Positions 57,240-64,000 of a stretch of 64,000 nucleotides of DNA are shown piece after piece. Within the stretch, counting starts at the first letter, position 1, and every line of letters begins with the position of its first letter. The stretch comes from Desulfomonilia bacterium (GTDB lineage: Bacteria; Desulfobacterota; Desulfomonilia; UBA1062): positions 150,793 to 214,792 of the forward strand of contig JBEKDT010000007.1 in the NCBI GenBank assembly GCA_050014195.1, given 5' to 3'. Made by a program: the position numbers and the translations under genes. The notes below the pieces were generated by a model, which saw nothing but the letters and a program-made list of their open reading frames with translations, had not been told where the DNA came from and made no database searches.

Positions 57240-57280
57240 TGTTACTGTCGCTCTCTGCGTGTGGAAAACGTAGGAATTCT

Positions 57281-57331
57281 GTGGCGCATCACCGGCGGCT
57301 TTAGCCGTCCGGTGGGATGCGATTGTTCCAC
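57281..57331 (-). mobile_element. attC site with disrupted right end
   Basis: GTGGAAC-AATCGCATCCCACCGGACGGCTAAAGCCGCCGGTGATGCG; centre nearly identical to the attC at 59749. Confidence 0.7.
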
Positions 57332-59144: not shown

Positions 59145-59201
59145 GCATAACATGCTGATCAGCGGCGGCTGAAATCCGCCCGGTGGATTTGCCGGTTCCC
59201 T
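59145..59201 (-). mobile_element. attC site
   Basis: AGGGAAC-CGGCAAATCCACCGGGCGG...GCCGCCGCTGATCAGCAT-GTTATGC. Confidence 0.7.
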
Positions 59202-59459
59202 TTAGCGATAGACATCTTTCCGATGACCTACTTTGACGACCCATATGGTCAGTTCATTATCTTGGATGGAATAGACAATGCGATACAATCCTTGACGTAC
59301 ACGATATCTTTCTTGACCTGTTAATTTTTCACTCCCTGAAGGTCGAGGATCTTCAGCAAGTTTCTTAATGCGATCAAGGATTCTGTTAAGATCCTTTTTG
59401 GGTATTGTCTTAAAATCCTTCTCTACAGACCTTTTGAAAAAGATATTATATGCGGCCAT
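59202..59459 (-). CDS. relE: RelE/ParE-family toxin
   Basis: LAEDPRPSGSEKL...YRVRQGLYRIVY...VGHRKDVYR. Confidence 0.92.
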   Translation of the reverse strand: MAAYNIFFKRSVEKDFKTIPKKDLNRILDRIKKLAEDPRPSGSEKLTGQERYRVRQGLYRIVYSIQDNELTIWVVKVGHRKDVYR

Positions 59460-59748: not shown

Positions 59749-59805
59749 AGCGAACGTTGTGGATCACCGGCGGCTTTAGCCGTCCGGTGGATTAACTTGT
59801 TCGGC
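59749..59805 (-). mobile_element. attC site
   Basis: GCCGAAC-AAGTTAATCCACCGGACGGCTAAAGCCGCCGGTGATCCACAAC-GTTCGCT. Confidence 0.85.
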
Positions 59806-60531: not shown

Positions 60532-60595
60532 GCCGAACGCCGGGCATCAGCGGCGCGGGTGGCAGTCCGCGTCCGCCCGGATGCCATGGTTGGGC
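60532..60595 (-). mobile_element. attC site
   Basis: GCCCAAC-CATGGCATCCGGGCGGACGCGG...CCGCGCCGCTGATGCCCGGC-GTTCGGC. Confidence 0.88.
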
Positions 60596-60612: not shown

Positions 60613-61302
60613 TCACTTTTTAATTTTTACTTTTGTTTCTTTTAATTGGCGCGAGTTGGTAAGTTTATGTGCCTTGTAGTCTAACTCGTAAAGATAATTT
60701 AGAAGGTCTTGACATATCTCAATTGCAAGTCTTAACTCTTCTATAGATGGGGCTGATAATTCATGTGCAGCTTCATTTCCAATAAATCGTAGGCTATGAA
60801 GATTACTTACAATATTTTGAGGGAGCGGGATATTTATCATATTGTTGATTCTTTCTTCAAGATTACTGCCAGTGATTCCTTTATCTGCGCAGATGCCTTC
60901 AAGAAGAGCACGTATACCCAAAGCGCAAAGTACATTTAAACTATTATTGTATGCTCGAAGTGTTTCACGATAGATAACGGCTAGCTTTTTGGGTAACTGT
61001 ACAAAATACTTTTCTTTTACATGAAGGTTAGTTCGCTCAGGGTAATACTCCACGTCAGGTCTTGAAACATATTCATCATTTGTAGCATCAAATATATAAA
61101 ATTCTTCTAGGGTTCCTCTTTCACAGCCTGCACATACCCAAAATCTGTAACCGACTCTTTCGACGATGCCCAAAGAGCCGTCGGGATTGTAACCTGGATA
61201 ATCCCTATAATGCTCTCCTTTTAAGACATGGTTAGTTTCATTCCTGCACCAATTGCAAAAAATATACTTCTTCTCACTAGCGTTTTCAGAATTATTTGTC
61301 AT
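60613..61302 (-). CDS. DUF4145-like HEPN-fold protein with N-terminal Zn-ribbon (gene cassette)
   Basis: CNWC/CAGC; RALLEGIC; LRFIGNEAAH. Confidence 0.8.
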   Translation of the reverse strand: MTNNSENASEKKYIFCNWCRNETNHVLKGEHYRDYPGYNPDGSLGIVERVGYRFWVCAGCERGTLEEFYIFDATNDEYVSRPDVEYYPERTNLHVKEKYFVQLPKKLAVIYRETLRAYNNSLNVLCALGIRALLEGICADKGITGSNLEERINNMINIPLPQNIVSNLHSLRFIGNEAAHELSAPSIEELRLAIEICQDLLNYLYELDYKAHKLTNSRQLKETKVKIKK

Positions 61303-61327
61303 TGTATGATCCTCATTTACAAGCCCA

Positions 61328-62043
61328 ATCGGGATAGGGGGGAGTTTCACAACTCCTCCCCTCCCACACCACCGTGCATACGGGTCACGTACACGGCGGT
61401 TCGGCTGATTCAGTCAATGTCCCTTGAGACATTAACCGGAGTGTCACCCTTCCGATTCCCAGTGATGGTTTCATCCTCCGACTTTGCCGGAGACAGTTTT
61501 GCCTGCTTGCCAGATGCAATACCATCCCTCGTCACAGAATAACTGCTCCTCTCATTTAATCCCCTTCCAGGGGAACCGTTCGGGCCTTCAGTGGCAAGCC
61601 ACCTACTATGCCCTCTGCTGACTCCTGTACAGCGGTCAGACTCTCTCTCAAGAGCCTCAGTTCTTTCTCTCGGCTACAGGCTGACATTTGTCTTCTCCGT
61701 TTTCCGCCTGGTTTCCCGACGGTGCCACAATATTCCAGCCATACCATTCAAAGAACACTGTACAGGCCTCCCGGGGTAAGACACAGAGCTTTGTAGCGCG
61801 TAAACGCCGGATTTATAAAACGTACACAACTCACGGATGGAGGACTTTATCGTCACGTGCCGACTCGTCCCATGTACGTCACACCTCATATCCGGTTCCT
61901 GTTCGTCGCCCCGCGCTTTTGGATTAGACTTCCTTCAGACCCCACCTCACGATGACGCCCTTGCCCTTCTCCTAGCCTTCGGCTCCGTTTATACCTGGCG
62001 CGAGGACTCCCACCTCGCTAGTTCTGTGCCATGCCCGGCACAC
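61328..62043 (-). ncRNA. ORF-less group II intron (class C-like) inserted in an attC core
   Basis: 5' end GTGTGCCGGGCATGGC; DIII-like GGAGTCAGCAGAGGGCATAGTAG...GAAGGCCCGAAC; DV GAACCGCCGTGTACGTGACCCGTATGCACGGTGGTGTG; 3' end CCCTATCCCGAT; removal restores GT|TGGGC. Confidence 0.88.
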
Positions 62044-62099
62044 ACGGCGGGCATCAGCGGCGCGGCTCCGCCGCGTCCGCCTGGATGCCATTGTTCGGC
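62044..62099 (-). mobile_element. attC site (core completed at 61323-61327 beyond the intron)
   Basis: GCCGAAC-AATGGCATCCAGGCGGACGCGGCGGAGCCGCGCCGCTGATGCCCGCC-GT. Confidence 0.85.
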
Positions 62100-62117: not shown

Positions 62118-63008
62118 CTAAGCCCCACTGTAAGCCAATCTATTAGCCAGCCCTATTAATACATCAAAATCTTTTGTTCTTGGTGGACATGAGTTGTTTA
62201 GACCTGCTTGATGGCATGTAGTCAGAAGGTTATCAGCTTCAATAATACCTGGTGTAGAGAATTCAATGAATGCGCCTATCGATCTTTGATCAGACGTGTT
62301 TTGCCAGACATTCTTATTCTTAAAAATAAATGAGTCTACATGTCGATCTAATAACAATCCAATTTCTTGCACCGTGCTACCAATAATAAGACCATGTTCA
62401 GGATTAATTAAATCGGTGATTGATAGGGCTAGAAGACCTCGTGCAGAGGCAGGTGATTGGGCTGTCTTATATCTGGAATGAAGTTGCTTTAGAGCTTCCT
62501 TTATCCGTTTATTTACCTTATCAAAGGACTTGAGCCTCTTGCATTCTAGAAATATTTCTATTCCATTATAATATACAACTAAATCTGCTTTATCTCCGAT
62601 GTCAATTCTTAGGCCTGCTCGGCGACAACGTGAAGCCAGAAGAAGTTCGAATGCAATATCACGACTAGGATCAAAATTAGAAGCAGATGAACGCCCTTCT
62701 TTGCCAGATAAAATGAATTTAATCTTATCTTTAAGATCGGAAGAATATAAGTCTGATAAGCCTCTATGGATTCTCATAAGTTCCATAGCTTCAGAAAGCG
62801 CAGTTACTTGATATGGAAAATCTCGCTTGAATTGTGCTGTATCAAGTGTGCCATTTCGGTAGTAATGCGCAAGTTCATCAATACAATCCTTGTACTTGCG
62901 AATTCGTGTCACAGCCACACTGAAACCAAAGGATTCGAACCATTGGTATGCAGCGTTATACTGATCAGAAAGATCCGCGTAACTAGTCCGAGTGAACCCA
63001 GACTTCAT
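62118..63008 (-). CDS. Hypothetical cassette protein, possible PD-(D/E)xK nuclease fold
   Basis: FELLLA...KADL...LECKR; low GC; between two attC sites. Confidence 0.6.
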   Translation of the reverse strand: MKSGFTRTSYADLSDQYNAAYQWFESFGFSVAVTRIRKYKDCIDELAHYYRNGTLDTAQFKRDFPYQVTALSEAMELMRIHRGLSDLYSSDLKDKIKFILSGKEGRSSASNFDPSRDIAFELLLASRCRRAGLRIDIGDKADLVVYYNGIEIFLECKRLKSFDKVNKRIKEALKQLHSRYKTAQSPASARGLLALSITDLINPEHGLIIGSTVQEIGLLLDRHVDSFIFKNKNVWQNTSDQRSIGAFIEFSTPGIIEADNLLTTCHQAGLNNSCPPRTKDFDVLIGLANRLAYSGA

Positions 63009-63041
63009 ATTATAGGCCTTACTTACTATTTGTTATCTCCT

Positions 63042-63097
63042 GCCGAACGCCATGCTTCAACCGCGCTTTTAGCGTCGGCTGGAAGCATTGGTTAGGT
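63042..63097 (-). mobile_element. attC site
   Basis: ACCTAAC-CAATGCTTCCAGCCGACGCTAAAAGCGCGGTTGAAGCATGGC-GTTCGGC; overlaps the stop codon. Confidence 0.88.
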
Positions 63098-63876: not shown

Positions 63877-64000
63877 TGATGTTCCCCAAGAAAAGTGGAC
63901 CACTATTTGTATTACCTTGCCAGTGCTTCATATTCAACAGGGGAACAGTAATTGATCCCCGAGTGTATCCGTTTCCTGTTGTAAAAATGGGTGATATATC
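63877..64000 (-). mobile_element. IS3-family element, right end (continues beyond window)
   Basis: Terminal TGATGTTCCCCAAGAAAAGTGGAC resembles the IS3 inverted repeat; minus strand reads YITHFYNRKRIHSGINYCSPVEYEALAR*. Confidence 0.85.

Follow-up and report, generated by a model that had tools for sequence, protein, structure and literature searches.

A group IIC intron without reverse transcriptase in an attC site's top strand belongs to a clade of sense-oriented attC-targeting introns

Introduction

How did a group IIC intron without a reverse transcriptase (RT) come to lie inside an attC site, in the same orientation as the gene cassettes around it, and to which lineage of introns does it belong? 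The question is raised by a cassette array in a 64,000-nt stretch of the genome of a Desulfomonilia bacterium (assembly GCA_050014195.1, here G000; contig JBEKDT010000007.1, positions 150,793 to 214,792). This whole stretch is called the window below, and positions are counted from its first nucleotide. In PMC3001079 and PMC7923331, the IIC-attC introns are defined as insertions into the bottom strand, antisense to the cassettes. PMC7923331 also cites a single top-strand IIC case, from Enterobacter cloacae (Rodriguez-Martinez, Nordmann and Poirel 2012), and a sense-oriented intron on a plasmid of Shewanella algae KC-Na-R1 appears in PMC9229058.

Results and Discussion

Class and architecture of the intron

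The 716-nt element (Table 1) is a group IIC intron. It matches the Rfam models group-II-D1D4-3 (119 bits), D1D4-1 (56 bits) and Intron_gpII (41.7 bits), all above the gathering score; the last of these is the comparison that the initial annotation of this DNA had called for. The same three models are matched by terminator-type IIC introns and by IIC-attC introns. Domain V is short and carries the CGC triad, a mark of class IIC according to PMC1702495, and domain I fits the full length of RF02001, as in terminator-type and IIC-attC introns. Domain I is short and has no EBS2, the EBS1-IBS1 pairing lies within the 3-4 bp of the class, and the 5' exon is a stem-loop, in this case an attC hairpin. 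The conserved AGGAA internal bulge is present as well (GAACAGGAAC at intron nt 140-149). The triad, the short domain I, the bulge and the exon hairpin agree with the class first proposed, and the intact ends, the CGC-bearing domain V and the domain VI of that proposal are confirmed. The bulged A of domain VI stands at -8. EBS1 is inferred to pair with the exon CGT at -3 to -1, with a U.C mismatch at -4, so that only 3 bp form at this site. Non-autonomy and a short domain IV without RT had also been claimed, and both hold: the RT body is gone, the longest stop-free stretch inside the intron has 87 codons and no RT motif, and DIVb is closed by a 12-pair hairpin (61411-61438) just 5' of domain V. 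A promoter scan across the intron gave no signal above chance inside it.

Table 1. Positions of the intron, its domains and the neighbouring cassette features in the window
Feature	Position	Strand	Remarks
ORF-less group IIC intron, 716 nt	61328..62043	minus	GTGTG at 62043, CCCGAT at 61328; Rfam matches
Domain I, IIC type, about 270 nt	61771..62038	minus	Rfam D1D4-3; covariation
EBS1 (ACGU), in the 8-nt d3 loop	61855..61858	minus	invariant in 22 of 22 aligned relatives
Long-range pairing, 5' strand	61984..61988	minus	partner 61833-61837; covariation
Domain II, enlarged by an insert	61620..61770	minus	
Conserved structured RNA module, about 75 nt, in domain II	61670..61748	minus	intron nt 296-374
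Domain III	61578..61617	minus	Rfam D1D4-1
Domain IV, 174 nt; retains the RT leader region but not the RT body	61404..61577	minus	
Domain V with CGC triad (61396-61398)	61368..61400	minus	Rfam; structure alignment
Domain VI with bulged A at 61335	61330..61366	minus	
5' part of interrupted attC (R'', L'', L', GT of R'); 5' exon hairpin	62044..62099	minus	
3' part of core site, TGGGC; first T is IBS3	61323..61327	minus	
Cassette ORF on the upstream side, 296 aa, without Pfam family	62118..63008	minus	
Downstream cassette ORF, DUF4145	60613..61302	minus	ATG at 61302
Intact attC upstream	63040..63097	minus	
Intact attC downstream, close in sequence to the interrupted site	60532..60595	minus	
Intact attC further downstream	59749..59805	minus	

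Structural alignment argues that the ribozyme has been maintained. Of the 80 pairs predicted in domain I, 44 covary, changing on both sides, in an alignment of 22 relatives, and the window's intron keeps all 80 consensus pairs. In a long-range pairing, which we take to be alpha by analogy, five of seven pairs change on both sides, a value that none of 500 shuffles reached. Here the window's intron has a compensatory change from G-C to A-U; five of its seven pairs are kept and two are broken. Domains V and VI are normal, and a broken ribozyme core, which the initial annotation had named as a reason to see only a dead remnant, is not what we found. In a tree of domain I RNA the end branch of the window's intron is 0.007, its neighbour is a truncated copy in a genome of the same genus, and it falls inside a starred set of 14 rows that includes RT-bearing introns. 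Judged from these structural models, the intron looks intact and its ribozyme uneroded.

The interrupted attC site and its array

The attC site's top strand is the minus strand, not the plus strand, by its four boxes and by cassette book-keeping. It reads R'' (GCCGAAC), a 5-nt spacer, L'' (CATCCAGG, longer than L' by one C), L' (GCTGATG), a 6-nt spacer and R', which is split as GT/TGGGC. The 5' exon ends in CCGCCGT and the 3' exon starts with TGGGC. When the intron is removed in silico, the site is an imperfect R''-L''-L'-R' palindrome with an extrahelical base and a GTT core. The restored GTTGGGC and the R'' that belongs to the next attC (GCCCAAC) are reverse complements, as expected if the core opens the downstream DUF4145 cassette, and two neighbouring cassettes follow the same rule. 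Given this complementarity and the directly read junction, the intron lies in the attC top strand, a single base to the 3' side of the G/TT crossover, at the very point first annotated. It lies in no ORF, and the flanking cassette ORFs are all on the minus strand, so the orientation with the cassettes was also read correctly at the outset. A GTG start listed at 61350 for the DUF4145 ORF lies in domain VI and was dismissed as spurious.

The insertion is found in identical form on three metagenome contigs, which are of the same organism and possibly not independent. Contigs of two runs, X22 and X23, which are not marked as possible sources, bridge both intron junctions; joints between attC sites with sides of 27-37 letters and 90% likeness were not counted as evidence. 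In the contigs of four runs there was no empty-site joint among the joints listed, and those of X5 and X7 pass the 3' junction unbroken.

The array is cut upstream by the end of a multi-copy insertion sequence (63877-64000), presumably of the IS3 family by likeness, which interrupts a DUF6602 cassette. The same element is present at the ends of contigs C3, C10, C12, C13 and C27 of G000, and in several of these it sits in the middle of an attC. Further cassettes between 57343 and 60517 encode a Sel1/TPR protein, an RHH-ParE toxin-antitoxin pair, an aminotransferase and a PIN toxin with a short partner. The attC-like sites at 59148-59203 and 57275-57330 look degenerate.

A widespread clade with its own target code

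We searched GTDB genomes with a 24-letter pattern of the intron 5' end that contains no exon bases, and found at least 120 stretches. Pooling this search with the others gave 132 distinct 5' exons, and among the matches listed 102 of them end in CGT, against a background of 1.0%. At least 84 CGT-site loci come from the 5'-end pattern alone and span at least 12 named phyla. Among the matches listed from that pattern, 18 of 31 non-CGT loci are from Bacillota, where the sites look like terminators. A crude geometry test on the 102 CGT sites, again among the matches listed, called 69 as top strand, 1 as bottom strand and 32 as unclear; all three bottom-strand introns used as controls were called bottom. 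The window's own strand call rests on direct reading and folding, the script's best top-strand match there being a spurious upstream pairing. The first 3' exon base is T in 26 of 27 complete introns.

The target preference goes with a difference in the intron itself. The d3 loop is GGCACGTGAC in the top-strand clade and GGCACAAGAC in Kl.pn.I3 and two relatives; EBS1 is accordingly ACGU in the former and ACAA in all three bottom-strand introns, matching CGT and TTGT exons, respectively. An EBS1 search over 89 sequences yielded a motif in 41, of which 39 read ACGT, and none in the remaining 48. The window's intron shares the GGCACGTGAC loop and domain I with the lineage of the pR148 intron, to which it is 79% identical over 46% of its length, and its site follows the rule of that lineage, a sense insertion at NCGT/T in R'. 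On pR148, pPp47 and further plasmids, RT-bearing members are found within class 1 integrons, also in sense orientation. The KC-Na-R1 intron (L253) differs from that of pR148 by 2 nt and belongs to the same clade, and the E. cloacae intron is presumably the pR148 intron itself, to judge from its aadA1-qacEdelta1 location. In other words, top-strand attC targeting is a fixed habit of a separate and widespread IIC clade. The initial annotation was right to speak of top-strand targeting; the element is not a variant of the IIC-attC family, from which it differs in EBS1 and, through its RT-bearing kin, in RT clade.

The RT phylogeny bears on this separation. The RTs of the top-strand clade grouped together in a first tree (17 of 32 rows, support 90/92, not starred) and in a second one (15 of 28 rows, SH-aLRT 86, not starred), from which L043, L080 and L066 were left out as long branches and L171 as a duplicate. 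A union of these RTs with the four bottom-strand IIC-attC RTs was rejected (p-AU 5e-6), which places the RT-bearing kin outside the IIC-attC RT lineage as sampled by only four bottom-strand rows, L198 having been assigned to the bottom-strand group after the first tree from its orientation relative to dfrA12. The kin RTs sit among terminator-type and IIC-attC RTs, and one row in the tree is clearly non-IIC. Taken from sequence, and with few bottom-strand rows, this points to two origins of attC targeting within class C, and the lineage appears to have acquired attC invasion separately from the textbook IIC-attC introns. It is also relevant to the notion that the window holds a classical IIC-attC intron that entered the wrong strand by accident. 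Both kinds are class IIC, match the same Rfam models and target attC; however, the different EBS1, the geometry calls and the rejected union of the two RT groups all speak against an accident, which we regard as extremely improbable.

Comparison with known introns

The 716-nt intron can now be set beside described systems. Like the E. cloacae and KC-Na-R1 introns, it has a IIC ribozyme of the same RNA clade, inserted in sense at GT/T of R' and with the same d3 loop. Unlike them it has no RT, whereas they encode one of about 445 aa in class 1 integrons, and it carries the domain II module in a chromosomal array without integrase. With the IIC-attC introns S.ma.I2 and Kl.pn.I3 it shares the class, the attC hairpin as 5' exon, an EBS1-IBS1 pairing of 3-4 bp and T as IBS3 (PMC3001079, PMC7923331 and PMC5027574). 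IIC-attC introns differ in being inserted antisense in the bottom strand at TTGT/T of R'', where the window has the top strand and CCGT/T of R', and in parting a gene from its attC, whereas the 716-nt intron splits the crossover core. PMC2882425 and PMC4424553 describe in Thermosynechococcus elongatus TeI3 a similar loss of the RT body from DIVb, with a retained ribozyme and a good EBS-IBS match; however, TeI3 belongs to class IIB and has helper proteins in the same genome and 17 copies (PMC2882425), as opposed to one copy of a IIC intron and no helper found here. UHB.I2, a IIB1 intron adjoining an attC, also has the orientation of the cassettes, but it is of class IIB/CL1, has different ends and is inserted just downstream of the site (PMC7923331).

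A literature search, outside whose reach key papers and supplements lay, returned no account of the clade's breadth, of the EBS1 difference or of ORF-less forms. The 716-nt intron is an ORF-less variant of a lineage reported in passing; it is neither a member of the IIC-attC introns nor a new kind of element.

Loss of the RT and possible mobility in trans

If the intron is intact but has no RT, did the short form move to this site, or did it arise there? Trans mobility of ORF-less introns has been shown in T. elongatus (PMC2882425), and PMC4424553 describes ORF-less bacterial introns as rare and nearly always accompanied by a helper. In our census of the 102 CGT-site insertions, among the matches listed, 13 are full length, 6 are short with EBS1, domain III and domain V found, 13 are short with internal ribozyme deletions or failed motif tests, 20 have no detected 3' end and 50 are cut by contig ends. 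The 13 deleted or failing short members indicate that decay is common in the lineage. Three short members of similar sequence, which lie at different attC sites (L021, L023 and L173), lack the whole EBS1 arm. One ORF-less member, L192, is a twintron, with an RT-encoding intron of another class about 18 nt inside it. Another conserved insert, of about 110 nt and with a GAAA-capped hairpin, occurs in domain III of L017, L081, L187, L190 and L192. A likeness to the c-di-GMP-I riboswitch was considered and rejected after no Rfam match at E<=5 was found in L187 or L193, which carry, or partly carry, this insert.

One explanation is that a full-length intron was inserted in the window's attC and lost its RT in place, so that the short form has stayed where it arose, a relic too recent to have eroded. 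In line with it, the intron is single-copy and no helper RT is present in the assembly, a 5' stub of the same lineage follows another attC of the genome, many members of the lineage are truncated, and genome G242 holds a full-length intron together with a partly deleted sister. On the other hand, in 10 of 12 short members examined, domain IV measures 116-182 nt and is closed at the same place by neat hairpins of different sequence, and genome G061 contains two ORF-less copies that differ at 2 of 613 nt and lie in different attC sites. No RT was found in G061 (98% complete, 60 contigs), and its near-identical pair suggests, by sequence comparison, mobility in trans. We consider loss in place unlikely for this copy. 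Instead, we think it probable that the 716-nt element is a structurally intact but non-autonomous intron from a IIC clade homing to the attC top strand, one whose RT body was deleted and which, as a short form, could be moved and spliced by the RT of a relative.

In G000 we detected no group II RT except a 59-aa maturase scrap, and no second copy of the intron; the parent and the copies that the initial annotation proposed to look for are thus both missing from the assembly. The sole full-length RT (440 aa, on C10) was rejected as a helper: no intron surrounds it, and it is 26% identical to a clade RT. It lies at C10:107600-108920 beside a P-loop NTPase-like ORF and is possibly a defence RT. 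The IIC intron with an intact RT in G402, a genome of the same genus, was rejected too, being terminator-type and placed after a T-tailed hairpin. Viral contigs gave no match to the intron 5' end plus exon. The 5' stub just mentioned is 20 nt long (C21:36558-36577) and follows an attC-like site ending in AACGT. C9:1-123 and the end of C26 share domains V and VI of a collapsed multi-copy intron of another class, the body of which, possibly with an RT, is absent; as this intron ends two contigs, the assembly can hide repeats. Two near-identical short ORF-less introns of a different class from the window's intron (Rfam D1D4-2) lie at C24:1841-2400 and C12:100400-100964, again with no helper RT in the assembly. 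We take this copy to be probably dormant, as the assembly yielded neither a helper RT nor an integrase and showed no second copy. The early suggestion that it could be spliced out of the array mRNA by a maturase acting in trans has to be qualified, as the assembly offers no candidate maturase and the insertion sequence cuts the array upstream.

We propose the following scheme for the active members. The ribonucleoprotein would recognize the folded attC top strand as a IIC stem-loop; EBS1 would pair with CGT, EBS3 would pair with the T that follows, and reverse splicing would take place a single base to the 3' side of the G/TT crossover. The bottom-strand IIC-attC introns would follow the same scheme with EBS1 ACAA on TTGT, so that two loop bases may go with the choice of strand. 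The sense orientation would allow transcription of the intron from the array promoter, and once spliced, the mRNA would again contain the intercistronic attC. After deletion of the RT body and resealing of DIVb, short forms may be spliced and moved by the RT of a relative.

Recombination at the interrupted site

What would the insertion mean for cassette recombination? The substrate of IntI is the folded bottom strand, preferred about 1000-fold over the top strand (PMC8946536), and the cut falls between A and C of AAC (PMC2811028). The insertion turns GTT into GTG and removes the outer R-box pairs. The predicted hairpin energy is -21.0 kcal/mol without the intron and -17.1 kcal/mol with the R box forced; in the free fold the R box is unpaired. 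This modelling makes reduced recombination at the interrupted attC likely, in the direction of the block first proposed: stripping the outer R-box pairs from the bottom-strand hairpin would lower IntI recombination and tend to keep the two cassettes together. G000 has no integron integrase above the cut-off, so that the array is a CALIN in this assembly, and such an integrase is present in 8 of 14 genomes of the same genus.

The opposite has to be weighed, namely that the interrupted attC still recombines usefully, the crossover G/T being kept and the intron travelling along as the 5' end of the downstream cassette. According to PMC2811028, a match at the first base is all that IntI1 requires, and one partner may carry a changed third base; in addition, three R-box pairs can still form with the intron present; yet the IntI1 mutants described there kept the hairpin pairing, whereas the insertion removes outer pairs. 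One 1838-nt intron, identical in both loci and followed by the same 3' flank, stands behind the aadA2 as well as the aadA1 attC (L252 and L046), which fits repeated retrohoming and recombination at an interrupted site equally well. Against free movement, five of the six plasmid copies examined keep aadA1 fixed to the intron and the 3'-CS, whereas they differ in the cassette that lies upstream of blaOXA-10. Overall, useful recombination at the interrupted site seems doubtful to us.

The domain II module

Domain II of the window's intron is enlarged by a module that we found in 34 distinct copies among the loci. Ten are in domain II of this clade; 19 were labelled automatically as domain VI of introns with a different domain V, although at least one of these is really in domain I, and 5 have no domain label. 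The module thus occurs in domain II of this IIC clade, domain VI of other group II introns and domain I of a third type. Copies include C17:21422-21499 of G000 and loci L258, L238, L261 and L262. A covariance model run on 151 genomes of the phylum gave 17 matches, spread over 10 of them, and the seven contexts that were read are all group II introns or their remains. No match to the module was obtained in Rfam, plasmids or viral contigs, and the literature search, including PMC3753933, yielded no description of it.

It could be asked whether the module makes the intron a domesticated regulator, which senses a ligand or binds a protein and thereby controls splicing and expression of the downstream cassette. 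In intron classes that are unrelated, and at different positions, the module remains 85% conserved, and 5 of its 19 pairs show changes on both sides, as might be expected of such a function. However, it matches nothing in Rfam, none of the contexts read is a gene leader, most members of the lineage do without it and the intron lies in no ORF, so that we find a regulatory role very improbable. Our guess is that the module is an accessory hairpin which binds protein and has been handed from intron to intron, through recombination or through template switching of the RT.

Implications

A more far-reaching picture, which we put forward only as speculation and think rather unlikely to hold in full, is that class C introns invaded attC sites twice. 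The top-strand clade of at least 12 phyla would include MITE-like ORF-less forms that live on borrowed RTs, are transcribed from the array promoter and spliced from the array mRNA, and either freeze pairs of cassettes or ride with the downstream one. The domain II module would then be an RNA passenger with a function of its own, in protein binding or ligand sensing, and would change places between the domains of intron classes that are unrelated.

The probably dormant copy in the window adds little alone beyond the domain II module. Its lineage matters more widely. Top-strand IIC insertion has been treated in the literature consulted as a one-off exception, and here it is the habit of a broad clade with its own target code, ACGU as against ACAA. 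Its recurring ORF-less forms escape intron surveys based on RTs, and introns that split the core hide attC sites from annotation. By splitting the crossover core, such introns could alter the shuffling and the expression of cassette arrays, those of resistance integrons included.
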